A stretch of DNA of 64,000 nt from Thiotrichaceae bacterium UBA7357 (GTDB lineage: Bacteria; Pseudomonadota; Gammaproteobacteria; Eutrophobiales; Eutrophobiaceae). The stretch's first letter is position 1. Each line of letters starts with the position of its first letter. The notes below the pieces were generated by a model. That model was not told the DNA's origin. It saw nothing but the letters and a program-made list of their open reading frames with translations, and searched no databases. The translations under genes and the position numbers were made by a program. Below, piece by piece: positions 3,704 through 23,391 of the stretch. The DNA lies in NCBI GenBank assembly GCA_002470825.1, contig DKOR01000018.1, positions 120,482-184,481 on the forward strand, given 5' to 3'.

Positions 3704-4786
3704 TTATTGAACAATCTTTTTCATTTCTTCAATAAATCTTTCTAAATCATTATTACTAATATCTCCCATACAAGAGATACGAAACAATGATTTGGCAAAC
3801 CCACCTTGTCCGGCATAGATGATAAAGCCAGCGTTCTTTAGTTTATCGTGTAGTTCTTCATAACTGATACCCTCAGGTAGCAGGAATGAATTTAGTACAC
3901 AGGAGGTTTCATTTCGTTCCAGTGAGGCTTTCATGTTTAATTCAAGCAAACCATTGCGAACAATGTCCATTCGTTGCCAGTATTGTTTCTGGCGTTTTCG
4001 CCAACCACCGGCATCGTTTAACTCATCTAATGCCTCGGCCAAGGCATAGAAGGTTTGTATTGATTGGGTGAAAGGTGTGCTATTGCTATCTTGTAGTTTC
4101 ATATAGGTCACAAGATCAAGATAGAGTGTGCGGGCAGGAGTTGCCGACATTTGTGTTATCGCTTCTCTATTACTGATAACGAATGAAGTGCCGGGGACAC
4201 CATGTAAACATTTATTTGCTGTTGCGGCGCAGGCAGCGATGTTCCATTCCTTGAATTTAATCTCTTCCGCACCAAAACTGCTAACGGCATCGAGCAAAAG
4301 TGGAATTCTCCCATGTTTATTAGAAAGTTCAGCAATGGCATCGATATCATTTAATCTTCCGGTGGTTGTTTCATGATGTACAACGGCAATATGGGATAGC
4401 TGTCTATTACATAGCAGCTCACTCTCTAACTTAGTCAGATCGATTTCCTCACCCCACTCATGATGAAGTATTACGTGTTCTATATTATGTGTTTTTGCTA
4501 TGTAACTTAAGCGTTCACCATAGACACCATTTTCTATAATTAAGACCTTCCCATGTGAAGGCACAAGACTAGTTATCATACCCTCCATTGCCGAGGTGCC
4601 AGAGCCAGTAAAGACTATGCTAGTCCATTGTTCTTCTGGCAGTTGATAAATATTTAGTAGATCGGTTTTGATCTTATTTTGTAATTTAATAAATTCTTGT
4701 TCACGATGACACAGATCGGGCTTTAATAGTGCCTGACGAACACGCTCACTTAAAACAACTGGACCAGGATTCAGTAATATAGTCAT
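3704..4786 (-). CDS. phnW: 2-aminoethylphosphonate:pyruvate aminotransferase (class V aminotransferase)
   Basis: 360 aa with the LLNPGPV N-terminus typical of the AGT/PhnW family. Last gene of the pepM-ppd operon. Confidence 0.75.
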   Translation of the reverse strand: MTILLNPGPVVLSERVRQALLKPDLCHREQEFIKLQNKIKTDLLNIYQLPEEQWTSIVFTGSGTSAMEGMITSLVPSHGKVLIIENGVYGERLSYIAKTHNIEHVILHHEWGEEIDLTKLESELLCNRQLSHIAVVHHETTTGRLNDIDAIAELSNKHGRIPLLLDAVSSFGAEEIKFKEWNIAACAATANKCLHGVPGTSFVISNREAITQMSATPARTLYLDLVTYMKLQDSNSTPFTQSIQTFYALAEALDELNDAGGWRKRQKQYWQRMDIVRNGLLELNMKASLERNETSCVLNSFLLPEGISYEELHDKLKNAGFIIYAGQGGFAKSLFRISCMGDISNNDLERFIEEMKKIVQ

Positions 4787-4788
4787 GA

Positions 4789-5943
4789 TTAAAAGCTGCT
4801 ATTAATATGTTTCATCAGTCTATTCAATACTTTATTTGGTGTGATGTCGGGTCTAGGTAGGTCTCCTATTGTGCCAGATGCTATTCTTAGATGGGCGAAT
4901 ACTGGCCCGTCTTGTGGTCCTATATTAAATAGCTTATCAATTATGTCGATTTCATTACTGGATAGACACACACTGTAACCACTTGCCTCTGCTACCTTCA
5001 AAAAATCGACATTACCACCAACGGTAGCTTGACCACCGGTAGAATCATGAACTTCATTATTCAATAGTATGTGGATTAGATTGTGACCTGCATAACTACC
5101 AATAGTAGCAAAATTACCCATACGCATCAGACCTGCGCCATCACCATCAATAATAACAACTTTTAAATCAGACCTAGCTAAAGCAACACCTAAACCTAAT
5201 GATGAAGCACAACCCATAGAACCCACCATATAAAAATGGTTGGAGCGATCATCGATGGCAAATAACTCACGACCGGTAAACCCTGTCGTCGCAATTAACA
5301 CTGTGTTTGCTTTAGGTGTCCGTTCGATAATTCTTTGCAAGACCTTATTACGATTAAGAGTTGATGCATCGGGATTATATGATGAATGAACAAGCGTCTT
5401 TCGTGATGAAATATCTTTCACTGGATTTTTATATAACGCCTGTGGCGCGACTGTACCTTTTTCCATTATAAAGGCGTAAGGTCTTTGTTCTTTTTTCATA
5501 TAATGATCTGCACGTTCTAGAGCTGGTCCTATATCTTCAACATTATTTGGAAATACTTCCCAAGGGACGCACATGGTGTCGAATAAATCTTTAGTTATTT
5601 GACCCATTAACTCATGTTGTGGCTCGTCTTTAATTCCAGGCTGACCACGATGAGTGCTTATAAGTAAATTTGGAATACGAAACACATAAGAAAGAGATGT
5701 TAACGGACTGATAGCGTTGCCTAGTCCTGAGTTTTGCATCATAACAACAGAACGCTGACCACCTATTGCTGCTCCTGCTGCGGTTGCTAATGCATCTCCT
5801 TCGTTAGCAGAGGAGACGTATTCCAATGTGTCATCGTTAATAACATAATTTATAAATGGTGTCAGGAATGAGCATGGCACACCCGTATAACGACTGAAAC
5901 CGAATTCGCGTGCCGCTTCAATAAATTCTTTTGCTTCGATCAA
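4789..5943 (-). CDS. ppd: Phosphonopyruvate decarboxylase (TPP-dependent)
   Basis: 384 aa with an N-terminal TPP-enzyme domain and a GDG...NN TPP-binding motif (VIIDGDGAGLMRMGNFATIG). Apparent TTG start 11 nt after the pepM stop. Confidence 0.8.
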   Translation of the reverse strand: MIEAKEFIEAAREFGFSRYTGVPCSFLTPFINYVINDDTLEYVSSANEGDALATAAGAAIGGQRSVVMMQNSGLGNAISPLTSLSYVFRIPNLLISTHRGQPGIKDEPQHELMGQITKDLFDTMCVPWEVFPNNVEDIGPALERADHYMKKEQRPYAFIMEKGTVAPQALYKNPVKDISSRKTLVHSSYNPDASTLNRNKVLQRIIERTPKANTVLIATTGFTGRELFAIDDRSNHFYMVGSMGCASSLGLGVALARSDLKVVIIDGDGAGLMRMGNFATIGSYAGHNLIHILLNNEVHDSTGGQATVGGNVDFLKVAEASGYSVCLSSNEIDIIDKLFNIGPQDGPVFAHLRIASGTIGDLPRPDITPNKVLNRLMKHINSSF

Positions 5944-5954
5944 TTTCGCTCTCT

Positions 5955-7592
5955 TTATTTTATAAAGTCGCTAGCGCGATCTATATCATCCAATGAATTT
6001 ACATCAAGCCAATGACCGTCTATATAATGAACATGGACTGGTTTCTCTTCTTGTATCAAATAATTTAACAAGTCAGGTATCGTAAGTTCATTGAAGTTTT
6101 TTGCTGACTTTAATTTTGTCAGCGCCGACTCTATCCATTCTCGGCCTTGTTTTCTGACACGCATCATCCCGATCCAGTAACCAGAAGGCTTTTTCTTAGA
6201 GGTATCAATTGAAGAAGATAGCTGTATTAATGTGACATCTTGCATAAACGGAGAACGATCATCATCTTTACTGCAATAGGCATAATCAGGATTGCCGGTT
6301 ATATTTGGATTATCCAAAGCAGAATCAACGATAATGACGACTTCCCCATCTGTTTCAATCAAGTCTCTCAGAATATATTCCCGAAACAATAGATCGCTAT
6401 AAAGAATCAACATATCGTCATTAAAATTTTCGTTTGCACAAATCAGTGTTTGTAGTTCATCACCTCTTTCGTAATCTTCATTGATACATTTCTCAATGCC
6501 GAGGAGATCTATCGCTTCCGCTTTATAACCTGCTATTACAGTAGATTTATTTATACCTACTTTTTTCAAGCCATCCATTAATCGACCTAGTAAGGTTTTA
6601 CCGCCAATACTGATCATCGCCTTTGGTTTATCATGTGTCAGCTCTCGTAATTCACTGCCCCTGCTTGCAGCTAGGATGACGGCATGGACATCTGATTTTT
6701 GTACTAAATATCTATCTTGTGCCTGACTTAATTCATCAGCACCTTGTAACTGAAAGATATGATCAACACTGGCAATTTTATCTTCAATATCGGCTAGAGA
6801 TTCTGAATCAAAAATAGCTTTACTAGTTTTTTCCATTTCATGAACAGAAGAGCGAATTAAATGATTGGCCCAAATAACCAAATTAATTCCTGCCTTACGA
6901 AAGGCATCTGTTGGTGTACTATAATATTTAGTTGGGACAATAACCAAGGGTGAGCGCTCAGCCCATTCTTTTGCAAAGGTGAGGATCTCATCTGGTCTGG
7001 AGAGTTTACTATGAATCAATACACCATCAGCACCGGCTTGACGATAGGCCTCTGCTCGCTTCAGTGCTTCATTTAATCCCCAGCCGGCAATCAGCGCTTC
7101 AACTCTCGCAACGATACTAAAATCATCATCGGATTGACTATCTTTACCTGCTTTAATTTTGCCACAAAATTCATCAATATCGGCCAAGGGTTGTTTGTTA
7201 CCATCGATAAAGCTATTTGTTTTTGGAAATTGTTTATCCTCTATACAAACGCCAGCAATATCACGTTGTTCTAGTTTTACGACAAGTCGACGCATATTGT
7301 TGAAATTACCATAACCGGTATCACCATCTAACAAGATTGGAATGCTTGTTGCGTCAGACATAAACTCTAGCATGTCGACTACCTGAGTCCAGCTTGCTTC
7401 GTTGCTGTCACGCACACCAAATTGTGCTGATATGGCAAGACCACTACCCCAGATACCTTTAAAACCGGCACTTTCTACAATACTTGCAGAAATACCATTA
7501 TGTGCTTCCAGAATGAATTCAAGTTCATTTGATTCAAGCAAAGAGCTTAGTTGTTTACACTTGCTAATTTTTTCACGACTATTTTTAGACAT
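5955..7592 (-). CDS. pepM: Phosphoenolpyruvate phosphomutase fused to a C-terminal LicC/CTP-transferase-like nucleotidyltransferase domain
   Basis: 545 aa. The N-terminal ~290 aa are an ICL/PEP mutase fold ([10 protein letters not shown]..., EDKQFPK..NSF); the C-terminal ~250 aa carry the NTase motif ([14 protein letters not shown]...[12 protein letters not shown]). Confidence 0.85.
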
Positions 7593-7611
7593 TTTTATAT
7601 TTAGCTAATGA

Positions 7612-8361
7612 TTAATAATTGATAGGTGATAATTTAGGGATTATCTCATTTTGGGCACGTTCAATATCTTCAGGAAAATCTATTTCGATCCAAGGAATGC
7701 CAGTAACATCTTCATAGCCAAATTGCTCGGGATATATTAATAATAGATCGCGAATTGCTTCTTCATACGGTGTATTGTTTTTGTTTTTTGCAAGATAGTC
7801 ATTTATTCGCCCAAGCAATGATGTGCCTATTAGCTTAGTAAACTTGAAAAAGCCGACTGATTCACCTTGTATAGCGTAATCAAGCTTTTCATCGATATTT
7901 TTTCTAAACTCATTTATTTGAGCATTTTTATCAACACAAATTTTTACAGGTTCATTACCAGGGATAAAATCACGGTCGAGCAAAAGGCAGTTTTTTATAT
8001 TCGTATTGATCAGACGAGTTATCATTTCATGACCATACAGAACATCAGCATCCATCAAAATAAATTCAGATTCATTGTATAGTGTTTCTTGTGCACAACT
8101 AAGGCTGATAATACTTCCTTCGGCATAACGATCATTATAAATATAGTTTATTGGTATTGTTTCATTGCTGAGATGAGTCTTTATCATTTCAGACTGATAG
8201 CCAGTGACTATTGTTATTTCTTCGATATGATTTGCCGAAAGAATTTCAATATGACGCTTTAATAGACTTTTCCCTTCAAACTTCAGTAATGACTTAGGTT
8301 GATTGGCAGCATGCATACCGAGTCTGTTACCAATGCCTGCGGCAAGAATAATAGCCTTCAT
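7612..8361 (-). CDS. LicC-like nucleotidyltransferase (CTP:phospho-base cytidylyltransferase family)
   Basis: MKAIILAAGIGNRLG N-terminus from the ATG at 8361..8359. The ORF is open further upstream to 8505, but that extension has no NTase similarity. Confidence 0.7.
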   Translation of the reverse strand: MKAIILAAGIGNRLGMHAANQPKSLLKFEGKSLLKRHIEILSANHIEEITIVTGYQSEMIKTHLSNETIPINYIYNDRYAEGSIISLSCAQETLYNESEFILMDADVLYGHEMITRLINTNIKNCLLLDRDFIPGNEPVKICVDKNAQINEFRKNIDEKLDYAIQGESVGFFKFTKLIGTSLLGRINDYLAKNKNNTPYEEAIRDLLLIYPEQFGYEDVTGIPWIEIDFPEDIERAQNEIIPKLSPINY

Positions 8362-8906
8362 AATCTTGTTATTTATACCTTTGTGTAAATGGTTCTTGAA
8401 CCAAAGGACTTCAAGTCCCTCATTTGCAACTATCAGGAATAGTTGGATTGTATCATTGTTACAAAAAATGTCCTTATGTACATTTGCAGATGAAAATATA
8501 GTCATGAATAATATATGTTAATAAGCCATTATGAATGATTATAATCAATATAATTAGCCCTATAAATAAATATTACTGAGCAACTTGACGATGAGAGTAT
8601 GTGATTCATTTGTCAAAGAGCAATGAATTATCGGTCAGGCAAGGTACTATTTTAGGGTAAGTCTTGATTAATTGCTGGCTTCATGGGTTATATTAAAATT
8701 GTAAGTAAGTATGCAAATACACAAAATTGTTTTTCATCTCTATGGCATGATTTCTGTAAAATCAAATCAACTAATATATCTTCGGCTAATACTTTCTTTT
8801 TTTATTTAATTCAAATTGAATATCTATTATTTTTTACTCGACTATCTATGCAGGTCATTAATTGAAAAATTTTTTGTAATTATATTCATGTACGTTTCTC
8901 GAACAA

Positions 8907-10496
8907 TCAATTTTTACAAGAGTTATGTTGTTTATATAGATTGATTAGATTCTGTGTGGATGAGTCCATTCCTTTTGATGCTACCGTGTCTTCTAAATTA
9001 TCATTAATCTTAACAGCAAGCTTTTTTCCTAGCTCGACACCATGCTGATCAAAAGAGTTAATATCCCAGAGTAGGCCCTGTACAAATGTTCTGTGTTCAT
9101 AAATTGCAATCAAAGATCCTAGCGTTTTTGGTGTTAGCTTAGAATACAAAATAGTTGTACTTGGCTTGTTGCCGGGAAAATATTTTTTTGGGTCAGAGTT
9201 TTTTTCCCCTTGCATTAAAGCTTGACTCTGAGCAAAGCAGTTAGCAACTAATTGTGCATGATGCGTTTTATTTCCTTTTTTTGATAATGGCACAAGAAAA
9301 TCAATTGGGACGAAATGAGTTCCTTGGTGGAGTAATTGAAAAAATGAGTGTTGAGAGTTTGATCCTGTTGAACCCCAGACAATGGGCATTGTTTTGTAAT
9401 TAATGGGTTCGCCATTTAAATTAAATGATTTACCATTACTCTCCATAAAAAGTTGAGCGAGATAATCTGGAAAAAGTCTCAGTGATTCGTCATAAGGAAT
9501 GAATGCGTGTGTTTGTGCATCAAAGAAATTGGAATACCAATAATCAACTAAAGCAAGGATAATAGGGATATTTTTTTCTATTGTTGTTTTAGAAAAATGT
9601 TCATCTACCTCATGGGCGCCAGAAAGCAAGTCTTCGAAGTTATTGAAACCAATTGATAATGCAATAGGTAGTCCAATTGAAGACCATAATGAAAAACGGC
9701 CGCCTACCCAATCCCACAACTCAAAAATATTTTCACTCGTTATACCAAATTCACGTGCCGCATCGAGATTATTAGAAACGGCTACAAAATGTTTTCCAAT
9801 ATCATCACACCCAATTTTTTGCATCCATGTTTTTAGCGTCCTCGCATTTGTTAACGTTTCTATTGTTTTAAATGATTTAGATGAAACAATGAATAATGTT
9901 GTTTCAGGATTTATTGATTTTTGTAGAGATTCGATTGTTTGATAATCAATATTAGATATAAAAAAGGATCGTAAGTCATCATGTCGATATTTTTCTAGGG
10001 CATCAACTACCATTTTCGGACCTAGATCGGAACCGCCAATTCCTATATTAACAAAAGTATCAATAGGTTTGTTTGTCCATCCACGATGAGTTTTGTCATG
10101 AACCTTTTCAACAAAAGCTTTAATTCTATTGAGCTCAGCATGAACTTTTCCAACGATATCTTTATTATCTACTTCAATTTTTTGTCTAATTGTAGCTCTC
10201 AGCGCTGTGTGTAGCGCAGCACTATTTTCTGTTGTATTAATCTTCGCACCAGCGAACATTGATCTTATAGATTCTTCAACCTTTGATGCTTTTGCAAACT
10301 TGAAAAGTAATCCTAATGTCTCATCAGTAATAATGTTTTTAGAAAAATCTATGTAAAGTGTAGATAGTTGTTGCATATAGTTTTTGCCACGGTGTTGATC
10401 ATCCATAAATAAATCATGCAAATGGATATTATGACTTGCTTCAAAATGGACTGATAGTTGATGAAGGATCTCTTGCTTATCATTAGGAAGATTCAT
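8907..10496 (-). CDS. pgi: Glucose-6-phosphate isomerase
   Basis: 529 aa with the PGI signature (GGRFSLWSSIGLPIALSIG, SNGKS). Confidence 0.95.
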   Translation of the reverse strand: MNLPNDKQEILHQLSVHFEASHNIHLHDLFMDDQHRGKNYMQQLSTLYIDFSKNIITDETLGLLFKFAKASKVEESIRSMFAGAKINTTENSAALHTALRATIRQKIEVDNKDIVGKVHAELNRIKAFVEKVHDKTHRGWTNKPIDTFVNIGIGGSDLGPKMVVDALEKYRHDDLRSFFISNIDYQTIESLQKSINPETTLFIVSSKSFKTIETLTNARTLKTWMQKIGCDDIGKHFVAVSNNLDAAREFGITSENIFELWDWVGGRFSLWSSIGLPIALSIGFNNFEDLLSGAHEVDEHFSKTTIEKNIPIILALVDYWYSNFFDAQTHAFIPYDESLRLFPDYLAQLFMESNGKSFNLNGEPINYKTMPIVWGSTGSNSQHSFFQLLHQGTHFVPIDFLVPLSKKGNKTHHAQLVANCFAQSQALMQGEKNSDPKKYFPGNKPSTTILYSKLTPKTLGSLIAIYEHRTFVQGLLWDINSFDQHGVELGKKLAVKINDNLEDTVASKGMDSSTQNLINLYKQHNSCKN

Positions 10497-10706
10497 GCTT
10501 TTTATTTCTCAGCGTATTAATTAGTTCAAAGGTTCAGTTGGCTGATTTTTGAGTCGAATTATATTAATAAAATTCTAATCAGATAGACTAATGATCTAAA
10601 TTATACACCGTAATGAACTAATATGAGCCTTAATTTATTGCAGATGAATATAATTAAGAATGATATTAAATATCAAAGCTATATATTCATTATTGATGTA
10701 ATCATG

Positions 10707-11144
10707 TCACGTTGTATCAGAAATGTAATGCTCTAGTTGTTCAATAATAAATTCCTTTTCTGAAATTATGTTCTTGACAACATCAATAACGGACAAAAGA
10801 CCTAAAGTTTTATTATTGTCCACTACTGGCAAATGACGTATGTGGTTGTTCGACATGATAATCATACATTCATCAATCGTTTGAGATGAGTTGACTGTTT
10901 TTAAATCAGAAGTCATTATTTCACTAACATTTATTTCAGATGAACTTCTATTGTTTAAGATAACTTTTCTAGTGTAATCCCTCTCTGACATAATTCCGAC
11001 TAGATTATCGTTTTCCATGACTAGTAAGGCACCGACTTCTTTTTCATTCATCATCTTTATTGCATCAATGACGAGAGAATTTGGTGTCACCGAAAAAACA
11101 TCATTTTGTATAGTATTTAGTAGCTGGCTAACTGTCGTAGTCAT
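10707..11144 (-). CDS. CBS-pair domain protein
   Basis: 145 aa with two CBS motifs (VGALLVMEN..LVGIMSERD; HIRHLPVVDNNKTLGLLSVIDV). Divergent from the kinase gene. Confidence 0.75.
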   Translation of the reverse strand: MTTTVSQLLNTIQNDVFSVTPNSLVIDAIKMMNEKEVGALLVMENDNLVGIMSERDYTRKVILNNRSSSEINVSEIMTSDLKTVNSSQTIDECMIIMSNNHIRHLPVVDNNKTLGLLSVIDVVKNIISEKEFIIEQLEHYISDTT

Positions 11145-11351
11145 GTTTATCTCTTTTTTTCACAAAGTCGAAAATGATAGACGCGCTTGTGTTTGTATTC
11201 CAGTATAGTACGCCTGATATTGAAATCAATATAGATATATTAATATTTCGCTTTAATTTAAATTACTTTGTTAAATTTGATATATTACATTTTTGTTGTA
11301 TCGCACACTAAGTGAATTCATTTAAATTTTAAAGATAGGCATAACAATCTC

Positions 11352-12644
11352 ATGACTGACAACATGCCAGAAAAAATTGGAAAATATGAAGTTCGAAATG
11401 AGATCAATCGCGGGAGTATGGGAGTCGTTTATCTTGGACACGATCCTTACGTAAATCGACATGTTGCTTTGAAGCTCGCATTTCTAGACTCACTTAATGA
11501 ACCAGAGTTTGGTGAGCGATATCGTAAAATGTTTTTTAATGAAGCTCATACTGCTGGTTTACTAACGCACCCCAATATTATTAATATTTATGATGCTGGT
11601 GTAGATGGTGACAATTGTTATATTGTTATGGAATATATTGAAGGTGGTAATACACTTAAGCCATATTGTGATTCCAATATGTTATTACCTATCAATAAAG
11701 TCGTTGAAATAATATTTAAATGTGCAAGTGCACTTGACTACGCACATCGACAAGGGGTTGTACATAGAGATATTAAACCTTCAAATATACTTTTTACGCC
11801 CGACCAAAATGTAAAGATTGCGGATTTTAGTATTGCTCATATATATAACGCAGATTCAACGACGACACAGGTGGGTGGAATGATGGGGTCGCCAAGATAT
11901 ATGTCTCCGGAACAACTTAAAGAAGAATACATAACTAACCAGAGTGATATTTTTTCATTAGGTGTGGTCATGTATGAGTTGTTGACAGGACGACAACCAT
12001 TTGCTGCAAATAGCTTTTCAGGATTGGTAAATAGTGTATTAAATGATGAGCCGCCGCCAATGAATAACTATCGGAATAATCTGCCTGAAGCTTTAAAAGA
12101 GATCGTAAATAAAGCTTTGAACAAAGATCTTTCTAATCGCTACAAGATGGGATTAGATTTTGCTGCAGATCTTACTAAAGCATTTGATATGTTGGGGAAG
12201 CCTAGAGAAGATATTTTTGTTAAAGAAAGATTTAATGCTGTCAAAACATTAGAATTTTTTGCTGATTTTGACGACACAGAAATTTGGGAAATTTTACATG
12301 CTAGTACATGGAAAGCTTATCATACTAATGATGATATTATTGTTGAAGGAGATATAGATGATTGTTTTTATGTCATCGTTAATGGCAGTGTTGAGGTGAC
12401 GAAAAATAGATCAGTCATTCGAAGGTTGGAAAAAGGCGATTGTTTTGGTGAAATGGGTTATCTATCTAAAACTAAGCGAACTGCCACTATCAAATCACTT
12501 GATTGTACGTCGATAATGAAAATTAATTCAACAGTGATTAATCAGGCATCAATAAATTGCCAGGTACGATTTTACAAGGTTTTTTTGAGAACCTTAATAA
12601 ATCGACTATCTGAAACTACAGAAAAGATATCTCAGGAGGTCTGA
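11352..12644 (+). CDS. Eukaryotic-like Ser/Thr protein kinase fused to a C-terminal cyclic-nucleotide-binding (CAP-family) domain
   Basis: 430 aa. Hanks kinase motifs are present (GRGSMGVVY, VALK, HRDIKPSNILF, ADFSIA, SPEQ); the C-terminal ~120 aa show a cNMP-binding pattern (IIVEGDIDDCFYVIVNGSVEV..GDCFGEMGYL..RTATIKS). Confidence 0.8.
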   Translation: MTDNMPEKIGKYEVRNEINRGSMGVVYLGHDPYVNRHVALKLAFLDSLNEPEFGERYRKMFFNEAHTAGLLTHPNIINIYDAGVDGDNCYIVMEYIEGGNTLKPYCDSNMLLPINKVVEIIFKCASALDYAHRQGVVHRDIKPSNILFTPDQNVKIADFSIAHIYNADSTTTQVGGMMGSPRYMSPEQLKEEYITNQSDIFSLGVVMYELLTGRQPFAANSFSGLVNSVLNDEPPPMNNYRNNLPEALKEIVNKALNKDLSNRYKMGLDFAADLTKAFDMLGKPREDIFVKERFNAVKTLEFFADFDDTEIWEILHASTWKAYHTNDDIIVEGDIDDCFYVIVNGSVEVTKNRSVIRRLEKGDCFGEMGYLSKTKRTATIKSLDCTSIMKINSTVINQASINCQVRFYKVFLRTLINRLSETTEKISQEV

Positions 12645-12962
12645 TTAATATCAGGGTATTAGGGGATAATGGGACAATATAGAATTAATTTATTGGATAT
12701 CCTTTATATGGAGGGTTCCAATGCTTGTAATGTGATTTAATAAAACATCTTATTTAATTGGACAATAATTTCTCATATGTTGGTTAAAGATATTAACTTT
12801 TAAATGAGCATGCAGTTAGAAGTTATTGTTGAAAATAGTAAAAATTAAAAACCTAAAACTTATAGGCTGAGAATGCTAAAGAAGATATAATATTCTTGAT
12901 GTTTCAAGTAATAACGAAATATATATATAACTTATATTACCTGTGTAAAGTATTAAATTTAG

Positions 12963-13036
12963 TGTCCCCAACAGGAGTCGAACCTGTAATCTACTCCTTA
13001 GGAGGGAGTTGCGTTATCCAATTACGCTATGGGGAC
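12963..13036 (-). tRNA. tRNA-Arg (anticodon CCU)
   Basis: 74-nt cloverleaf read by hand: GTCCCCA / GCGT..ACGC / ACTCC-CTCCTAA-GGAGT / ACAGG-TTCGACT-CCTGT / TGGGGAC-A. CCA is not encoded. Confidence 0.9.
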
Positions 13037-13061
13037 ATATGAAGTATATCCACACTCTAAT

Positions 13062-13093
13062 TTTAGCCATACTTTAGTTGCGCATCCAGTGTT
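13062..13093 (-). promoter_or_regulatory. Candidate sigma70 promoter for tRNA-Arg (TTGACA -35 with a weak -10)
   Basis: The reverse strand shows TTGACA, then an 18-20 nt spacer, then actaaa/TAAAGT about 25 nt upstream of the tRNA 5' end. Sequence inspection only. Confidence 0.25.
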
Positions 13094-13296
13094 ATCTGTC
13101 AATTAAGCTACTCAAGATCCTTATAATTCTACAAGTATATAAATAATACAATATACTAAAAGAAACAGGTCATAGTTTAAATCACGAATCAGGATTGGAT
13201 GGTTATATTCAACTCAGCTAATAATGTATTTTACTTTCATCATGATTATTATTTTGAAATGGTAAAGTAATCAAAATCAACAAAGGCATAACAAAT

Positions 13297-14259
13297 ATGT
13301 ACGATACATCATCTTTACTCAATCAAAGAAAATTTCCAATGATTAAGCGAAAGAGCCTAACTACGCTACAAATCAATATTGGCTTGAAGTGTAATCAGCA
13401 GTGTTTTCATTGCCATGTTAATTCGAGCCCCAAAAGAAAAGAAAAAATGTCTAATGCCACTATTAAGGCAATTAAGCTATTTCTAAAAAATAATAATATT
13501 GAATCACTTGATATCACTGGTGGTGCGCCAGAACTTCACTCAGAATTCAGATCTCTTATAAAATATGCGCGTGAAAATGATGTGCATGTTATAGATCGGT
13601 GTAATCTGACTATTTTAGAAGAGCCAGGGATGGAATACCTTGCGCAATTTTTAGCAGATTATGAAGTAGAAATTATAGCTTCTCTACCTTGCTATGAACT
13701 AGAAAATGTTGATAAACAACGAGGTGTAGGTGTGTTTGAGAAAAGTATCAGGGGTTTGAAAAAATTGAATAAAGTAGGTTATGGACATTCAAATTTGGAG
13801 TTACCTTTGAATTTAGTATTTAATCCTCAGGGGGCAGCATTGCCACCACCACAAGATTATCTGGAACGAACTTATAAAAAAGAATTATTGGAGAGGCATG
13901 GAATTAAATTCAATAAACTTTTTACATTATGTAATATGCCAATAAACAGATTTGGAAGTACCTTGGTATCCAAAAATCAATTAGATGACTATATGAGAAT
14001 GCTTACGGGTTCGCATAGGGAAGAGAATCTAAGAGATGTGATGTGTCGTAGTTTAATCAGTGTTGACTGGCAAGGTTATGTATATGATTGTGATTTTAAT
14101 CAAATGTTGAATATAAATTTAAATGATGCCGAAGAAAAAATATCGATTTCTGATTTGGTTGGTAATGATATTGAAGGTGATATAATTGCAGTGCGGGATC
14201 ATTGTTATGGTTGTACGGCAGGGCAAGGTAGTAGCTGTAGCGGTGCATTAACTGCTTGA
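13297..14259 (+). CDS. Radical SAM / C-terminal Cys-rich domain protein, ArsS-like (TIGR04167-type rSAM/selenodomain protein, Cys version)
   Basis: 320 aa with an N-terminal CNQQCFHC (CX3CX2C), the ITGGAPELH glycine-rich motif and a C-terminal Cys cluster CYGCTAGQGSSCSG. Immediately followed by its two usual partner transferases. Confidence 0.75.
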   Translation: MYDTSSLLNQRKFPMIKRKSLTTLQINIGLKCNQQCFHCHVNSSPKRKEKMSNATIKAIKLFLKNNNIESLDITGGAPELHSEFRSLIKYARENDVHVIDRCNLTILEEPGMEYLAQFLADYEVEIIASLPCYELENVDKQRGVGVFEKSIRGLKKLNKVGYGHSNLELPLNLVFNPQGAALPPPQDYLERTYKKELLERHGIKFNKLFTLCNMPINRFGSTLVSKNQLDDYMRMLTGSHREENLRDVMCRSLISVDWQGYVYDCDFNQMLNINLNDAEEKISISDLVGNDIEGDIIAVRDHCYGCTAGQGSSCSGALTA

Positions 14260-14265
14260 GATTAT

Positions 14266-14946
14266 ATGCAAAAAAAAATATCTATTATAATCCCAACACT
14301 AAATGAAGCCGACCAAGTTGAACGACAGCTGGCTAAGCTTCAGACGTTACGGAAAAATGGTCATGAGGTGATTTTAGTAGATGGTGGCAGTATTGATGGT
14401 ACAGTTTCATTAGTAATATCATTATGTGATCAAGTTTATGAGTCTCAACGATCACGCTCAATTCAAATGAACTATGGAGCAAGAAAAGCGACGGGAAAAT
14501 GTTACGTATTTTTACATGCTGATACAATTCTTCCAGATGACATTATTCAGTTTTTGTTGAAGATTAATAATATTGAAGAAAAATGGGGCAGGTTCGATAT
14601 AAGTCTGTCAGGAAGACACTGGCTATTCCGTGTTATTGAGTCATTTATTAATTGTCGATCAAGTTTTACAGGTATTGTTACAGGTGATCAGGTTATTTTT
14701 ATTGGAGAGGAATTGTTTTCCAGAGTGGGAGGATATCCAGAAATAGCTTTAATGGAAGATATTGCTATATCTAGTTTGTTGATTAAATTTTCAAAGCCAA
14801 TTCGAACTAGAAAAAAGGTAATCAGTTCTAGTCGACGTTGGGAAAAAAATGGAATATTTAAAACAATTATAACAATGTGGATATTAAGATTATTATATTT
14901 CTTTGATTATGATATTAATAAAATAGCAAGATACTATGGAAAATGA
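14266..14946 (+). CDS. Family 2 glycosyltransferase (rSAM/selenodomain-associated transferase 2, TIGR04283-like)
   Basis: 226 aa with the ISIIIPTLNE...VILVDGGSIDGT GT2 N-terminus. Starts 6 nt after the rSAM stop and overlaps the next gene by 11 nt. Confidence 0.75.
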   Translation: MQKKISIIIPTLNEADQVERQLAKLQTLRKNGHEVILVDGGSIDGTVSLVISLCDQVYESQRSRSIQMNYGARKATGKCYVFLHADTILPDDIIQFLLKINNIEEKWGRFDISLSGRHWLFRVIESFINCRSSFTGIVTGDQVIFIGEELFSRVGGYPEIALMEDIAISSLLIKFSKPIRTRKKVISSSRRWEKNGIFKTIITMWILRLLYFFDYDINKIARYYGK

Positions 14947-15580
14947 ATTTTCTAGAGGAGCTCTCTTAATCTTTACAAAAGCACCTGTGCGCGGACATGT
15001 TAAAACACGATTAATCCCAAGCATTGGTCTAGAGCATGCTACTTCGATATATCAAGAAATTTTAACAAAGACGCTAAGCACGGCAAGAAAATCTAATTTT
15101 TCTTCTATACAGGTATGGGTTGATGGTGGGGTTGAGCATGCTTATTTTAAGCGTTTAAAAAGTAGGCATAAGGTTAAATTTTACAAACAGAAAGGTAAGG
15201 ATTTAGGAGTACGAATGATGAACGCCTTTAAAATTGCTTTACGTCAATATTCTCATGCTGTTTTAATTGGTGGAGACTGTCCTTCATTAGAATATTTAGA
15301 TTTAATAATGGCAAGTGACTATCTTAAGAACAATACAGATGTAGTCTTAGGCCCTGCAATTGATGGCGGTTACTATTTGATAGGTTTAAATAAAAACAAT
15401 GCTCAAATATTCACAAATGTAAAATGGGGTAAAAGCGGAGTGTTTGCTCACACTTGTGAAAATATAAGTGCTCTAGGCTTGAAGCTTGACTTGTTGCCAG
15501 AGCGTTGGGATGTTGACCGAACTGTTGATTTACTACCTTACTTCAAGATGAAACGAAAAAACGCCACTCTTTACTACTAA
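14936..15580 (+). CDS. DUF2064 / MobA-like nucleotidyltransferase-fold protein (rSAM/selenodomain-associated transferase 1, TIGR04282-like)
   Basis: 214 aa with LIFTKAPVRGHVKTRL...DLGVRMMNAF...LIGGDCP...GPAIDGGYYLIG. The G-x-D-x-P and DGGY motifs are typical of the DUF2064 family. Confidence 0.65.
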   Translation: MENEFSRGALLIFTKAPVRGHVKTRLIPSIGLEHATSIYQEILTKTLSTARKSNFSSIQVWVDGGVEHAYFKRLKSRHKVKFYKQKGKDLGVRMMNAFKIALRQYSHAVLIGGDCPSLEYLDLIMASDYLKNNTDVVLGPAIDGGYYLIGLNKNNAQIFTNVKWGKSGVFAHTCENISALGLKLDLLPERWDVDRTVDLLPYFKMKRKNATLYY

Positions 15581-15853: not shown

Positions 15854-15944
15854 GGAGAGGTGTCCGAGTGGTTTAAGGAGCACGCTTGGAAAGCGTGTAT
15901 ACGTTAATAGCGTATCGAGGGTTCGAATCCCTCTCTCTCCGCCA
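15854..15944 (+). tRNA. tRNA-Ser (anticodon GGA), type II with long variable arm; CCA encoded
   Basis: GGAGAGG acceptor, anticodon arm CACGC-TTGGAAA-GCGTG, variable arm ATACG..CGTAT, T-arm GAGGG-TTCGAAT-CCCTC, then TCTCTCC-G-CCA. The six-frame ORF 15824..16138 (-) overlapping it is spurious. Confidence 0.9.
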
Positions 15945-16227: not shown

Positions 16228-17319
16228 CTATAATTTTGTATTTTTTATACGAATAATACAGTCAATTGTAGCATGCTGGAAATCCATAAATTCATTCGGT
16301 TTACATCCAATAACTTTTGGATCAAATGACCCCAAAACATCAATTTCTAATTGGTTGGCTAATTTCCTTATTAAAGGCTCGACGACTTCCATTGTTAGTC
16401 TGTTTTTCGAATTAATGTTAGCCCATACATTTGGATGGTAGGGAGTAAGAAGAAAAACTGGAGTAACACCTTTGTTAATTAGAGAGCGTATGTGTCTACG
16501 ATATAGATCTAATGCATTAAGATCATAGTATGTGCCTTCCGTAAGATATGTTGGTTCTATCAACGGGATTGGAAAAACTTTCGAATTATCTATTTTTTTT
16601 GCAGAATAGATGATACTTCCATCAGGTAACAAAACAGAGTCTTCTAATCCAACCTCTTCGTCAAAAGAAGGAGCATCCTTGATTGATTCTTTGCCATTAG
16701 CGGCCAAAAACATTGCTTTTTTTATAGATCGAATCGTATATTCAAGACTTAATAGATTTGATAGTTTAGCACTGTTGAACTTGTCAGAGTTTGTCGTGAG
16801 TGTATCAACCTGTTCCAACTCCTTCAATGCATTCATATATACATCTGGGTACGCATTCTGCCAAGCTAAGCCTTTACCAATATGGAATACCCAAGGATCT
16901 ATACAAAAAATAATTTTATTTGGTTTTTGATTAGAGTTGGTAGCAGCAAAGGAAAGTGCAATATGATCTTCAAGTAGAGCACCAGAAACTGCGAGATTAA
17001 AAATCTTTTCGCACATTTCTGCCAAGGAACTTTTTTTTCGAAAACTACTCAATTGCATTGCGTGGCTGCTACCAATTATCACGCAGTCAACTTCACCAAC
17101 TGATTGCGCTAATTCAATCTTAATCTTTCGATCATTCCATGAATGAGATTTGAAAAATAAGCCATGATGAGATTGTATCAATCTATTAGCGTATTCCTTC
17201 GAGCTATTACTGGATACCCTGTAAATTCCTGCAGGGTCATACACAATGTTGACTGAAACAGCTGCGGACAACACTAATGTAGCAAACAATCCTAATATTA
17301 TCAGATAGCGTTTCGACAT
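16228..17319 (-). CDS. Periplasmic SGNH-like O-acyltransferase partner protein (AlgJ/AlgX/DltD/PatB-like)
   Basis: 363 aa with an N-terminal signal anchor, a GSSH (GDS-like) motif at VIIGSSHAMQ and a C-terminal DFQH. Immediately downstream of the MBOAT gene, 3-nt gap. Confidence 0.5.
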   Translation of the reverse strand: MSKRYLIILGLFATLVLSAAVSVNIVYDPAGIYRVSSNSSKEYANRLIQSHHGLFFKSHSWNDRKIKIELAQSVGEVDCVIIGSSHAMQLSSFRKKSSLAEMCEKIFNLAVSGALLEDHIALSFAATNSNQKPNKIIFCIDPWVFHIGKGLAWQNAYPDVYMNALKELEQVDTLTTNSDKFNSAKLSNLLSLEYTIRSIKKAMFLAANGKESIKDAPSFDEEVGLEDSVLLPDGSIIYSAKKIDNSKVFPIPLIEPTYLTEGTYYDLNALDLYRRHIRSLINKGVTPVFLLTPYHPNVWANINSKNRLTMEVVEPLIRKLANQLEIDVLGSFDPKVIGCKPNEFMDFQHATIDCIIRIKNTKL

Positions 17320-17322
17320 TGT

Positions 17323-18867
17323 TCAGAACTGAAAATATAGGAATTGGCTCGTCTTTTTAAGATTCAGCAAAGCAAATCCTAAAACAAGCCCAGCCATTAC
17401 TGCCCATACCTTGGTAGGACGCCAACTCAACCAACTTATCTGACGCTCATTCCGACTTGAGTCCAATGCAAGTGAGTAATGGGTGAGCCATTGCTGAACA
17501 TTGGGCAATATCCAGACAACAAATAACCCTCCAACAAGCCAACAGATAGTAACCTTTCCAGCACCACCACCTATTAATGGGGCCAAACCATTAAAAATGA
17601 TGTAATCGCTCCGTACCATGTGGCTCAGGAATGGGTAAAACTGATTGGGTAAACTAATCCCATTCAGCCCTATCATGCCCGATAAAATACTCATTGCTGC
17701 ATCCATATTTTCCGCACGGAAAAACACCCATGCAGCCGTTACCGCTATAAAAGTCAAAAAAATCATAAATATATGGGCAAATTTTCCTAATGGCACGGCG
17801 CTTGTTCCAATCAGTGTACGCCAACTATGGTTGAGCACTAAGTACGCACCGTGCAACCCTCCCCAAATAATGAAATTCCACCCAGCACCGTGCCATAAAC
17901 CGCCTAGAAGCATGGTTGCCATTATATTCCGATAGCGGATGAATTTACCATGACGGTTGCCCCCGAGAGGTATGTAGAGATATTCTCGTAAGAATGCGGA
18001 CAATGTTATGTGCCAACGCCGCCAGAAATCAATAATATTTGAAGCTTTGTAAGGTGAATTGAAGTTCAGCGGAAGACGAATATTGAACATGCGCGATAAA
18101 CCTATAGCCATATCCGAATATCCTGAAAAATCGAAATACAATTGCAGGGAGTAAGCTAGTGCCCCAAACCAAGCTTCAAAAAACATTGACTGCTCACCAC
18201 TAGCAGCGCCATTAAAAACCGGTGTGGCATATAAGGCGAACTGGTCTGCAAGTACAACTTTTTTGAATAACCCAACAGCAAAAATTGTAATGCCAATAGC
18301 CAAATGATCATAATTTAGTTTATATACCCAATCTTTTGCAAACTGAGGCATCATTTCCTTATGGTGGACAATCGGGCCAGCAATTAACTGAGGAAAGAAA
18401 GTGACAAATAAACAATAATGCAGAAAATTATATTCTCTTGTTTTTCCTTTATATGCATCGACTAAATAAGCTATTTGCTGAAAGGTAAAAAAAGAAATTG
18501 CCAAAGGTAAAATAATGGTCTTTAAATTAAAGTCTAATCCAATTGCCAGGTTCAAATTATCTACAAAAAAATTGGCGTATTTAAAATAACCGAGAAGTAC
18601 AATATTCCCAGAAATCCCAATAAAAAGTAATGATTTCTCATGGGACCAGACCTTCTTTACTAACATCACTCCAATCGAATAATTAAACAGAATCGAGAAT
18701 AGTATTAATCCAAGATAAGCAGGATTCCACCATCCATAAAAAAAAAGTGAGGCACCCACTAACCAAGAAATAGCAATTCTATGATGCCCTTTCTTGCCAA
18801 TCATAAAAAAGCCAATCAATGTAAATGGTAAAAATAGAAAGATGAATGCGTAAGAGTTGAAAAGCAT
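17323..18867 (-). CDS. MBOAT-family membrane-bound O-acyltransferase (AlgI/DltB/PatA-like)
   Basis: Start taken at MLFNSYAFIFLFLPF (ATG at 18867..18865), which is the typical AlgI/DltB N-terminus; the ORF is open further upstream to 18984. MBOAT signature WRRWHITLSAFLREYLYIPLGG plus an invariant His. Confidence 0.85.
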   Translation of the reverse strand: MLFNSYAFIFLFLPFTLIGFFMIGKKGHHRIAISWLVGASLFFYGWWNPAYLGLILFSILFNYSIGVMLVKKVWSHEKSLLFIGISGNIVLLGYFKYANFFVDNLNLAIGLDFNLKTIILPLAISFFTFQQIAYLVDAYKGKTREYNFLHYCLFVTFFPQLIAGPIVHHKEMMPQFAKDWVYKLNYDHLAIGITIFAVGLFKKVVLADQFALYATPVFNGAASGEQSMFFEAWFGALAYSLQLYFDFSGYSDMAIGLSRMFNIRLPLNFNSPYKASNIIDFWRRWHITLSAFLREYLYIPLGGNRHGKFIRYRNIMATMLLGGLWHGAGWNFIIWGGLHGAYLVLNHSWRTLIGTSAVPLGKFAHIFMIFLTFIAVTAAWVFFRAENMDAAMSILSGMIGLNGISLPNQFYPFLSHMVRSDYIIFNGLAPLIGGGAGKVTICWLVGGLFVVWILPNVQQWLTHYSLALDSSRNERQISWLSWRPTKVWAVMAGLVLGFALLNLKKTSQFLYFQF

Positions 18868-19999
18868 ATTTTTATTATATCTAACGACCTCTAAATTGTA
18901 ACGCAACATCTTTCGGTATGAAAAAAATAAGAAGTGAAGTGTTGAATAATGGAACACTATGCGTATTTTGATAGTAAGGAACATACTTCATAGGAACTAA
19001 GACTCAGAAGGATGGGTACTAACTGATTTAGAAATGGACCATCTTTTTGGTAAGGATTTAGTTCTCTCAGTTTTACTGAAAACATCTCTTGCTGCTGTGA
19101 CTGTTGTAAATAACAATTAGCTTAATCTAGCTGTATTGCCAATAAGTTACTATAACGATGAAGAGCTGTTTTTTGTAAATTAATTCTGTAGCTTATGTTG
19201 GATTGTAAGCTTCTTAATCGCTTTACTTCCTCGAGTCTTTTCGTTATCTATTACGACATATGTAAAGGACATACCAGAAAAAATATTTCTTGAAATAGCA
19301 TTCAATTTAGATTTACCAGCAATGAAAGTTCTTCATTTTTTTGTAGATAAATATCAATCCGTCTTTACACACAGAAGACATAAATGGTTAAGAAGAGGTA
19401 TAAAAGTATATGCAGAGGTATTTATGGCACTTTTACATAAAAAATATCTGAGTTGGCTTATCTATAATAGTTAAGAAAAGTGATGTTCTTTCTAAGGTGC
19501 CAACATAAAACGTATCCTGAGAATCAAGGTAACTAGGATGTGCTGTTTCTATCCTCAGAATTATTCTCTAAGAGTAATCCATTTCCTGTTCTTGAGTGTA
19601 GTAAAATTTGTCGATATGTCGTAACATTTTGATGTAATAAAATTATACAGATTGTGTAACAGAAGGTTGTCTAAATTAGGTGAGATTCCCTATATTTTCT
19701 CAATTTTAGCGAAATTAATAGAGATACTGGATAACTCTAGACTGTAACCACTGCCATATTCTGTATGCGACTAATTGAATAAAATTATATTTCTAGATTT
19801 AGATAATGATCCTATATTTGATATTCAGATACTATATGAATATAGAGTAACTGTGATTTGTAATGAACGCAGATTCAATTATATTATAAATATTAAGATG
19901 CTGGGTCGATTATTCTAATGAGATAAAAGGATTTACTGCTATACATTACGTATAAAGGCTTTTTCGATAACTTCATCAATTATAAATTTACTTCACACA

Positions 20000-23279: not shown

Positions 23280-23391
23280 GGTGGCCTTTACCGGTCCCCT
23301 CGCAACACGAAATTGTGAATCCCGCCAGGTCCGGAAGGAAGCAACGGTAGCAGTCGATGTGTGTGACGGGGTAGGGACGGTATAGGCCGCC
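23280..23391 (+). ncRNA. ffs: Signal recognition particle RNA (4.5S RNA, small SRP RNA)
   Basis: Contains the near-invariant domain IV sequence GTGAATCCCGCCAGGTCCGGAAGGAAGCAACGGTAG. The 5' GGTGGCC pairs with the 3' GGCCGCC and the RNA is followed by a T8 run (23396..23403). Typical position just upstream of dnaX. Confidence 0.85.

Follow-up and report, generated by a model that had tools for sequence, protein, structure and literature searches.

The DNA analyzed here, in the following called the window, is a 64-kb stretch (64,000 nucleotides) of contig DKOR01000018.1 from Thiotrichaceae bacterium UBA7357. It contains a gene, designated K2 together with its product, that encodes a soluble serine/threonine (Ser/Thr) kinase fused to a domain for binding cyclic nucleoside monophosphates (cNMPs), hereafter the cyclic-nucleotide-binding (CNB) domain, and that is accompanied by a divergently oriented CBS-pair gene, by the glucose-6-phosphate isomerase gene pgi and by a tRNA-Arg. 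Profile searches, residue conservation and locus comparisons identify K2 as an orthologue within a widespread, vertically inherited bacterial Ser/Thr kinase family, whose members consist of a PknB-type kinase domain, a conserved linker and one CNB domain of the PKA/PKG type. The parts of the gene are as follows:

11352..12644, + strand: K2 gene, 430-aa soluble Ser/Thr kinase with cNMP-binding domain (open reading frame (ORF), Pfam, homologues)
11385..12146, + strand: Hanks-type kinase domain, residues 12-265 (Pfam, motif conservation, superposition of the AlphaFold2 (AF2) model on PknB)
11823..11912, + strand: activation segment D158-E187 with the candidate autophosphorylation sites T170 and T172 (conservation)
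12147..12311, + strand: residues 266-320, conserved linker and N-terminal CNB helices (alignment A1, AF2)
12312..12542, + strand: cNMP-binding beta-barrel, residues 321-397 (PF00027, alignment with PfPKG)
12552..12638, + strand: residues 401-429, a long C-terminal helix serving as CNB hinge/lid (AF2, alignment A1)

Domain layout, catalytic residues and nucleotide pocket

The initial annotation of this locus had proposed a kinase fused to a C-terminal cNMP-binding domain, and profile searches confirmed both halves of this proposal. Pkinase (PF00069) matched residues 12-265 with 175.8 bits (cutoff 31.7, E=1.4e-51) over profile positions 1-253 of 263, hence over the whole catalytic domain, and cNMP_binding (PF00027) matched residues 321-397 with 53.1 bits (cutoff 27.5, E=3.3e-14). 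The start codon is backed by the N-terminus MTxxxPEKLGKYEV, which is conserved in the homologue alignment. Likewise in agreement with what had been annotated, K2 has no transmembrane segment (maximal Kyte-Doolittle mean over 19 residues of 1.42), and profile searches with Pfam and NCBIfam revealed no PASTA domain. No NCBIfam equivalog reached its cutoff; the PASTA-kinase equivalog NF033483 (Stk1/PknB) scored 296 bits against a cutoff of 450 and matched the kinase domain only.

The catalytic set of the kinase domain is present, namely K41 (beta3), E64 (alpha-C), H138-R139-D140, K142, N145 and the Mg-binding D158, and S185-P186-E187 (the SPE motif), D199 and R263 are retained as well. These residues are invariant or nearly so in 109 relatives derived from the loci compared below and in a set of 70 distant representatives of 50%-identity clusters, the window protein included. 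Among the former, K41, E64, D140, K142, N145 and D158 do not vary at all; among the latter, K41, H138, K142, N145, D199 and R263 are invariant, and E64, D140, D158 and, in the CNB domain, E367 are conserved at 90% or more. The initial annotation had described all catalytic motifs as intact, which is correct for the catalytic Lys and Asp residues, but not for the glycine-rich loop (Gly-loop) and the DFG triplet, as K2 possesses neither a canonical GxGxxG loop nor DFG. Its Gly-loop reads N19-R-G21-S-M-G24, with Asn replacing the first glycine (window positions 11406-11408), and its DFG triplet is D158-F-S160, i.e., DFS (S160 codon at 11829-11831). DFS was found in 40 of 41 K2 proteins and in 43 of 44 proteins of the sister kinase K1 (see below), and distant family members retain DFG. 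All 44 K1 proteins start the Gly-loop with Gly, whereas every K2 protein has D, S, N or A there. As judged from these alignments, both deviations are clade-wide variants and no lesion specific to the window. The second glycine of the loop, which is the most critical of the three, is retained in K2 as G21. In the activation segment, T172 is present in 44/44 K1 and 40/41 K2 proteins and T170 in 40/41 K2 proteins; by analogy with PknB-type kinases, phosphorylation of T170 and T172 may have a role in K2.

Taken alone, the C-terminal 153 residues of K2 matched CNB domains from PKG (Plasmodium and human) and from the PKA regulatory subunits (PKA-R) far better than CRP-type proteins. The best match in the HMMER comparison was PfPKG (E=1.7e-31). 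In line with the CNB domain initially proposed, an alignment of the cNMP pocket showed a canonical phosphate-binding cassette (F365-I380), which reads F365-G-E367-M-G-Y-L-S-K-T-K-R376-T-A, aligns with FGE...RTA of PfPKG and contains both the Glu assigned to the ribose 2'-OH (E367) and the Arg assigned to the phosphate (R376). G366 is invariant among the distant representatives, of which 65/70 have E367 and 57/70 R376, the latter being found in 40/41 K2 proteins too. The ungapped HMMER alignment with the CNB-D domain of PfPKG pairs R357 with R473, E367 with E483, R376 with R492 and T377 with T493; the capping residue R484 of PfPKG is replaced by Met (M368).

Two of these positions concern the choice between cAMP and cGMP. 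R473 of PfPKG, corresponding to R297 of human PKG, is the conserved beta5 Arg that touches the guanine of cGMP (PMC8931422), selectivity for cGMP is classically ascribed to the cassette Thr, which is T317 in PKG I-beta (PMC3765617), and the exchanges T192R/A212T and G316R/A336T switch PKA RI-alpha from cAMP to cGMP selectivity (PMC3765617, PMC4565163). K2 has both the beta5 Arg (R357) and the cassette Thr (T377), a finding at the sequence level only, and since these match the selectivity residues of PKG, its ligand is predicted to be cGMP, or cGMP and cAMP. Across the alignment the beta5 position is Arg in 40/41 K2 proteins and Gly in 40/44 K1 proteins, and the cassette Thr is common to both, from which we predict that the K2 pocket bears the full PKG-type signature and that the one of K1 resembles a half-converted PKA site.

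The linker and the helices flanking the beta-barrel are highly conserved. In alignment A1, the linker and the CNB helices are invariant at M266, G267, A271, L274, F278, L281, E292, F294, K298, L300, F302, F303, F306, D308, E310, W312, E313, I314 and W320. The C-terminal helix carries the conserved motif NCQVRFxKVFLRTLIxRLSxTTEK, which is nearly invariant among close relatives, with N402, C403, Q404, R406, F407, R418, L419, S420, T422, T423 and E424 invariant in A1 and R418 and L419 each retained by at least 90% of the distant representatives. An AF2 model of K2, built from a 61-sequence alignment, reached a mean pLDDT of 80.2 and a pTM of 0.63. When its kinase part was superposed on M. tuberculosis PknB, the target-normalised template modeling (TM) scores were 0.83-0.91, with 0.89 for the match to the PknB kinase domain (root-mean-square deviation 1.9-2.8 A, ~32% identity). 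The C-terminal part was modeled with helices at 267-277, 288-298 and 308-316, strands within 318-392 and a single helix at 401-429, and thus shows the CNB fold of a beta-barrel with flanking helices (288-316 and 401-429). Confidence was low in the activation loop (160-178), as would be expected of a mobile loop, in the linker (282-288) and at the cassette tip (369-372).

Family, sister kinase and chromosomal surroundings

A first protein search yielded more than 120 clusters of 429-431 aa with 67-90% identity to K2, and precomputed Pkinase and cNMP_binding hits were present in 119 of the 120 listed clusters. In an exhaustive HMMER search of 1.84 billion cluster representatives, about 70 of the best 150 hits were proteins of ~430 aa that matched over their full length in a single stretch, with identities of 36-58%. 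Pkinase was recognized in 70/70 and cNMP_binding in 69/70 of the distant representatives, so that these best 150 hits alone contain 69 or more different 50%-identity clusters with this architecture. The source names of the clusters are generic ('serine/threonine protein kinase') or mis-transferred ('PknD'). The initial description of the architecture as unusual is accordingly valid only among characterized kinases.

One genome per species was scanned, which gave 244 encoded relatives; 78 loci were kept, and their ORFs were clustered for gene-order comparison. The closest relative of K2 (90% identity, locus L079) is encoded by the marine metagenome-assembled genome (MAG) 'Thiotrichaceae bacterium UBA7359'. 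Other loci belong to uncultured Gammaproteobacteria MAGs of marine or sediment origin and to the cultured Methylohalomonas lacus, and more distant ones to MAGs of Nitrosomonadales, Gallionellaceae, Sideroxydans, Desulfobacterales and Nitrospirota type. The typical order, found in ~30-45 genomes, is NTP-transferase gene, K1, pgi, CBS gene, K2, with K1 and K2 pointing in one direction and the other three genes in the opposite one; pgi is present in 47/78 loci. K1 (~433 aa) is, like K2 (430 aa), a kinase-CNB protein, is located between the NTP-transferase gene and pgi in 43 relatives, and co-occurs with K2 in 35 of the 37 loci holding K2 and pgi. The tree places K1 and K2 in two sister clades whose internal branching runs in parallel, which points to an old duplication followed by co-inheritance, and the window protein falls into the K2 clade as sister to the UBA7359 sequence.

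K2 is under strong purifying selection. Over the same 37 genome pairs, its mean identity to the window protein is 70.8% compared with 56.9% for pgi, and in the deepest comparisons K2 remains at 64-68% when pgi falls to 41-50%. This constraint and the persistence of the gene cluster fit a core regulatory protein, the opposite of an effector or defence gene.

Outside the K1/K2 clade, no consistent partner gene was found in the 78 loci. In two Nitrospirota-/Thermodesulfovibrionales-type relatives, a gene for a CHASE2-PP2C membrane phosphatase lies immediately upstream of the kinase-CNB gene (L055:1913-4108 and L071:3028-5229); the gammaproteobacterial loci have none. It is plausible that this protein is the cognate phosphatase in these two loci, and its position beside family members is as expected for a genuine phospho-signaling kinase. 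Further neighbors are a REC-PAS-GGDEF-EAL gene (two loci), an M48 peptidase gene (Nitrosomonadales) and, in another clade, MltD-like and ABC transporter genes.

The features surrounding K2 in the window are the following:

10707..11144, - strand: standalone CBS-pair gene, 145 aa, two CBS stretches (Pfam)
11145..11351, no strand: spacer between the divergent CBS gene and K2, putative promoter region, 207 nt (spacer alignment)
8907..10496, - strand: pgi, glucose-6-phosphate isomerase (Pfam PGI, E=7.8e-183)
8362..8906, no strand: K1 slot of relatives, empty here, 545 nt (locus comparison, tblastn)
12962..13036, - strand: tRNA-Arg(CCT) (ARAGORN, Rfam)

Both neighbors named in the initial annotation, the divergent CBS-pair gene across 207 nt and the tRNA-Arg, are thus in place. 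The CBS gene adjoins K2 in 33 loci and is followed downstream by pgi in the same direction; the solved structure closest to its product is 4fry (E=2.5e-42), an uncharacterized 'putative signal-transduction protein with CBS domains'. An alignment of 25 spacers (the window and 24 loci) revealed the blocks GATATTRAAATCAAT..TAGAT..ACATTAATAT and TTGYTGCRNYGCACA, which are kept among closer relatives, the second one lying ~45-60 nt upstream of the K2 start. They were matched to no known regulator, and inspection of the spacer by eye revealed no convincing CRP or sigma-54 site. A promoter scan of positions 10400-13400 was uninformative, with promoter-like matches no commoner than in shuffled sequence, and a terminator scan of the same region found none. 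The AT-rich pattern TTAATATTNNTTAATATT (up to 3 mismatches) occurs 18 times in the window compared with 7.4 matches expected from shuffles, none of them in the spacer upstream of the kinase; this excess is probably a compositional or low-complexity effect.

At the position where relatives carry K1, tblastn searches with K1 proteins over the whole window matched only K2, and 8362-8906 contains no K1 remnant. L079 also lacks K1 at this slot, which is an AT-rich spacer of 545-700 nt across both genomes. It looks as if K1, a member of an otherwise co-inherited pair, has been lost from this locus in the lineage of the window. On the other side of K2, the 3' end of the tRNA-Arg(CCT) faces the stop codon at a distance of 317 nt. 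The tRNA gene is found at the same place in L079 and L080 and farther downstream, past other genes, in L026, L040 and L045; it is a conserved chromosomal landmark and no integration site for K2.

Apart from K2 and its neighbors, the window is ordinary gammaproteobacterial core chromosome, with dxs, pgi, the signal recognition particle (SRP) RNA gene, dnaX-ybaB-recR, orn, nnr, tsaE and amiC, the series mutL-miaA-hflX-hflK-hflC-hisZ-purA-rnr-rlmB-rpsF, and dnaB, alr, radA, ffh and maeB. Pfam scans of 40 window proteins, which did not cover about ten ORFs of at least 150 aa and shorter ones, found no Dot/Icm, secretion-system, PP2C or FHA family; six of these roughly ten larger ORFs have Pfam-annotated counterparts in the collinear L079. 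The small bacterial SRP RNA (23289-23385, + strand; RF00169, 68.6 bits) lies upstream of dnaX-ybaB-recR and is an ordinary housekeeping landmark. A phosphonate biosynthesis cluster (3704-8361, - strand) encodes an aminotransferase, so named because its gene is collinear with Aminotran_5 in L079, a thiamine diphosphate-dependent phosphonopyruvate decarboxylase-like protein, a phosphoenolpyruvate mutase-nucleotidyltransferase fusion and a separate NTP-transferase. The ORF of the latter, listed at 297 aa, is probably over-extended, as homologues have ~249 aa, which places the start near 8361. Beyond the tRNA-Arg lies a conserved trio to which no function is assigned (13297-15580, + strand), comprising genes for a radical SAM/DUF3641 protein, a family-2 glycosyltransferase and a DUF2064 protein, which travels with the tRNA-Arg(CCT) in L026, L040 and L079. 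Directly after tRNA-Ser(GGA) (15854-15944), the minus strand encodes a 363-aa protein without Pfam hit and a 553-aa MBOAT O-acyltransferase (16228-18984). This pair is missing from the same position in L079, and the MBOAT gene has the highest GC content at third codon positions (GC3) among the genes checked (0.379). If anything, a tRNA-associated insertion in the region would be this pair rather than the kinase.

Proposed function and alternative explanations

Taken together, it appears likely that K2 is an active, cytoplasmic core kinase, predicted to be regulated by a cNMP. The cyclic nucleotide would bind between the cassette (E367, R376, T377) and beta5 (R357) and, as in other CNB domains, would reposition both the helical linker on its N-terminal side and the C-terminal helix. 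The change would reach the kinase through the linker and could switch it on via release of an autoinhibitory contact, as in PKG and mycobacterial Pat, or alternatively by dimerization and trans-autophosphorylation at T170/T172, as in PknB-type kinases. The conserved neighborhood is the only guide to possible targets, the candidates being the CBS-pair protein, glucose-6-phosphate isomerase and the sister kinase K1; a functional link of K2 to CBS and pgi is suggestive. That K2 actually prefers cGMP, as its pocket residues would predict, can be put forward only tentatively. It is rather unlikely that the complete scenario applies, in which K2 would be a true bacterial cGMP-dependent kinase, built independently of PKG, which together with K1, whose beta5 Gly would make it cAMP-responsive or non-selective, would couple cyclic nucleotides to central carbon flux via the pgi-CBS unit flanked by the pair in most genomes.

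Several observations weigh against a cNMP-regulated active kinase or against parts of this proposal. Catalysis could be lowered or altered by DFS and by the missing first glycine of the Gly-loop. The beta5 Arg varies in the wider family of 70 distant representatives, cGMP signaling is rare in bacteria, and the 40 proteins scanned with Pfam, all from the 64-kb window, do not include a nucleotide cyclase. One K2 subclade has no CBS gene, and in L026 and L040 both pgi and CBS are missing between the adjacent K1 and K2, so that the neighborhood of K2 with pgi-CBS may stem from vertical inheritance and not from functional coupling. As the pTM of the AF2 model is only 0.63, the switching mechanism is inferred. 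Furthermore, literature searches found neither biochemistry on any family member nor a characterized bacterial kinase-CNB protein.

Quite another origin and role had been suggested in the initial annotation, according to which K2 would be a kinase of an intracellular bacterium of the Legionellales, acquired horizontally as an islet at the tRNA-Arg and translocated by a Dot/Icm system. The lack of transmembrane helix and PASTA domain in a soluble Hanks-type kinase, the nearby tRNA-Arg 3' end, the AT-rich genome (window GC 0.369) and a weak partial match to LegK1 are what such an islet kinase might show. This explanation is nevertheless hardly credible, since none of the 78 loci belongs to Legionellales, the nearest relatives being marine Gammaproteobacteria MAGs, and the LegK1 model NF043056 gave 36.5 bits against a cutoff of 550, with PknB/Stk1 as the nearest relatives of the kinase domain. 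The order pgi-CBS-kinase is retained in at least 30 genomes in which pgi has only 41-50% identity, i.e., across deep divergence, with K2 more conserved than pgi, and a 21-kb stretch including the tRNA-Arg is collinear between the window and the 90%-identical relative. K2 was seen in the same context in its relatives, with no variable presence as in an islet. No direct repeats of the tRNA-Arg 3' end were found flanking K2, and no integrase-type families were recognized in those flanking genes that were scanned. Of 18 matches to a PmrA-like motif in the window, none lies in the CBS-K2 spacer, which contains no PmrA-like tandem site, and no Dot/Icm family was matched by the 40 scanned window proteins (about ten further large ORFs being unscanned). 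The GC (0.350) and GC3 (0.260) of K2 are within the range of dnaX, mutL, purA and pgi, and at its C-terminus it has the alpha-C helix of the CNB domain, a conserved element. Searches of 72,556 plasmid and 50,697 phage records yielded no full-length homologue, just generic kinase domains below 40% identity. On the basis of conserved synteny, missing repeats, typical GC3 and the absence of a full-length plasmid or phage homologue, K2 was rejected as a tRNA islet, and on the basis of its non-Legionellales relatives, the LegK1 score far below the cutoff and the spacer without PmrA-like site as a Dot/Icm effector; the flag was a false lead. For an anti-phage kinase of the PD-T4-6, MADS or BREX-PglW type, which would phosphorylate host or phage proteins upon infection, the matches are strong, as PADLOC PD-T4-6 models cover residues ~10-285 with E-values down to 2.6e-82, mad6 reaches 4.4e-67, and NCBIfam MAD6 and PglW match partially. 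We regard it as very unlikely all the same, because these matches are limited to the generic kinase domain, with the CNB domain outside the PADLOC models and the NCBIfam scores below their cutoffs (158 vs 460 and 78 vs 990), and because defence genes are absent nearby, where pgi, the CBS-pair gene, phosphonate biosynthesis genes and a tRNA are found. Vertical inheritance, stable synteny and strong conservation are unlike patchy, fast-evolving defence genes, the K1 and K2 trees suggest a distribution in keeping with the species tree, and the lack of full-length homologues on plasmids and phages counts here as well.

The two other alternatives concern the protein itself. If DFS and the lost Gly-loop glycine disabled phosphotransfer, K2 would be a pseudokinase or scaffold with cNMP-dependent binding, e.g., to K1. 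The near-universal DFS in both clades, the non-Gly first loop position of all K2 proteins and the joint occurrence of K1 and K2 in 35/37 loci are compatible with such a role, but pseudokinases usually lose at least one of the residues K41, E64, D140, K142, N145 and D158, which are invariant here (n=109), T172 is conserved and G21 is kept. In addition, the lineage of the window holds K2 alone after the loss of K1 from the locus, which argues that K2 functions by itself, and a pseudokinase is therefore considered quite unlikely. It is also unlikely that the CNB-like domain binds a ligand other than cAMP or cGMP, or only dimerizes, as some domains of the CRP/FNR superfamily do. This possibility is favored by the lack of a cyclase in the window proteins scanned, by the low AF2 confidence at the cassette tip (369-372) and by the long, conserved helix at the C-terminus, through which two chains could pair as a coiled coil, as with the C-helix of CRP. 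The cassette is, however, canonical, with G366, E367 and R376 conserved to the extent given above even in distant members, and the best matches are genuine cNMP domains of PKG and PKA-R and not CRP/FNR proteins, the CRP model NF008732 reaching 40 of the 266 bits of its cutoff.

Comparison with known systems

An active kinase regulated by a cNMP would be of interest since, in the textbook view, cAMP and cGMP of bacteria signal through transcription factors of the CRP type and through a small number of fused enzymes. Cyclic-nucleotide-dependent protein kinases are seen as a eukaryotic invention. The domain combination as such is already known from databases, and CNB is listed among the domains associated with Ser/Thr kinases (STKs): a single sentence in one study names it as one of three associated domains shared between STKs of Planctomycetota and kinases of yeast and C. 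elegans (PMC11032199). The main text of a preprint presenting an atlas of bacterial STKs contains no mention of cNMP, cyclic nucleotide, cAMP or CNB, and the 2005 surveys yielded no characterized bacterial kinase-CNB protein. The ~430-aa family, the K1/K2 pairing around pgi-CBS and the PKG-type pocket appear to be undescribed.

Among bacterial kinases, the kinase domain of K2 is nearest to PknB, PknA and Stk1 (S. aureus Stk1, 4eqm) at E ~1e-46 to 1e-47 and 31-34% identity, shares their fold (TM scores of 0.83-0.91) and has, like them, Thr residues in the activation loop. Unlike these proteins, K2 has neither a transmembrane helix nor extracellular PASTA domains, its sensor is the intracellular C-terminal CNB domain, and its DFG triplet is DFS. 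With LegK1-4 it has in common that it is a soluble Hanks-type kinase of a gammaproteobacterium, but K2 is a vertically inherited core gene of an organism outside the Legionellales, and evidence of secretion was not found. Mycobacterial Pat and Bdellovibrio Bd1971 (CNB-EAL) are further bacterial proteins in which a CNB domain, weakly matching the one of K2, is fused to an enzyme, yet their outputs are GNAT and EAL domains and not a Hanks kinase, and their CNB domain is N-terminal and not C-terminal. CRP/FNR proteins share the CNB fold, and possibly a C-terminal helix mediating dimerization, but K2 contains no helix-turn-helix and scores far below the CRP model. These comparisons place K2 in the superfamilies of Hanks kinases and CNB proteins, but not among PASTA kinases, CRP-type regulators or LegK effectors.

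The PKA holoenzyme offers the same logic of a kinase gated by a cyclic nucleotide, and its CNB domains are homologous to the one of K2 (E ~1e-13 to 1e-18); in addition, the beta5 Gly of K1 corresponds to G316 in CNB-B of PKA RI-alpha (PMC4565163). In K2, however, a single chain holds both functions, and no recognizable pseudosubstrate inhibitor sequence was identified. PKG (human PKG I, Plasmodium) likewise combines kinase and CNB in one chain and shares with K2 the beta5 Arg, the cassette Thr and the Glu/Arg pair. K2 nevertheless does not show the PKG arrangement of N-terminal tandem CNB domains followed by an AGC kinase: the domain order is reversed, a single CNB domain takes the place of two to four, the catalytic core resembles PknB, and there is no N-terminal dimerization/autoinhibitory segment. 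K2 would thus operate in the manner of PKG or PKA without belonging to that family. Reversed order, single CNB domain and PknB-like core suggest that this architecture was probably assembled independently of eukaryotic PKG. A large conserved bacterial family thus shows the sequence hallmarks of a cyclic-nucleotide-dependent kinase with the PKG order reversed and a PknB-type core, is under tighter constraint than the neighboring glycolytic enzyme gene pgi, and usually occurs as two paralogues, which differ precisely at the position deciding between cAMP and cGMP in PKA and PKG. If the prediction is true, bacteria would have convergently evolved PKG- and PKA-like signaling.

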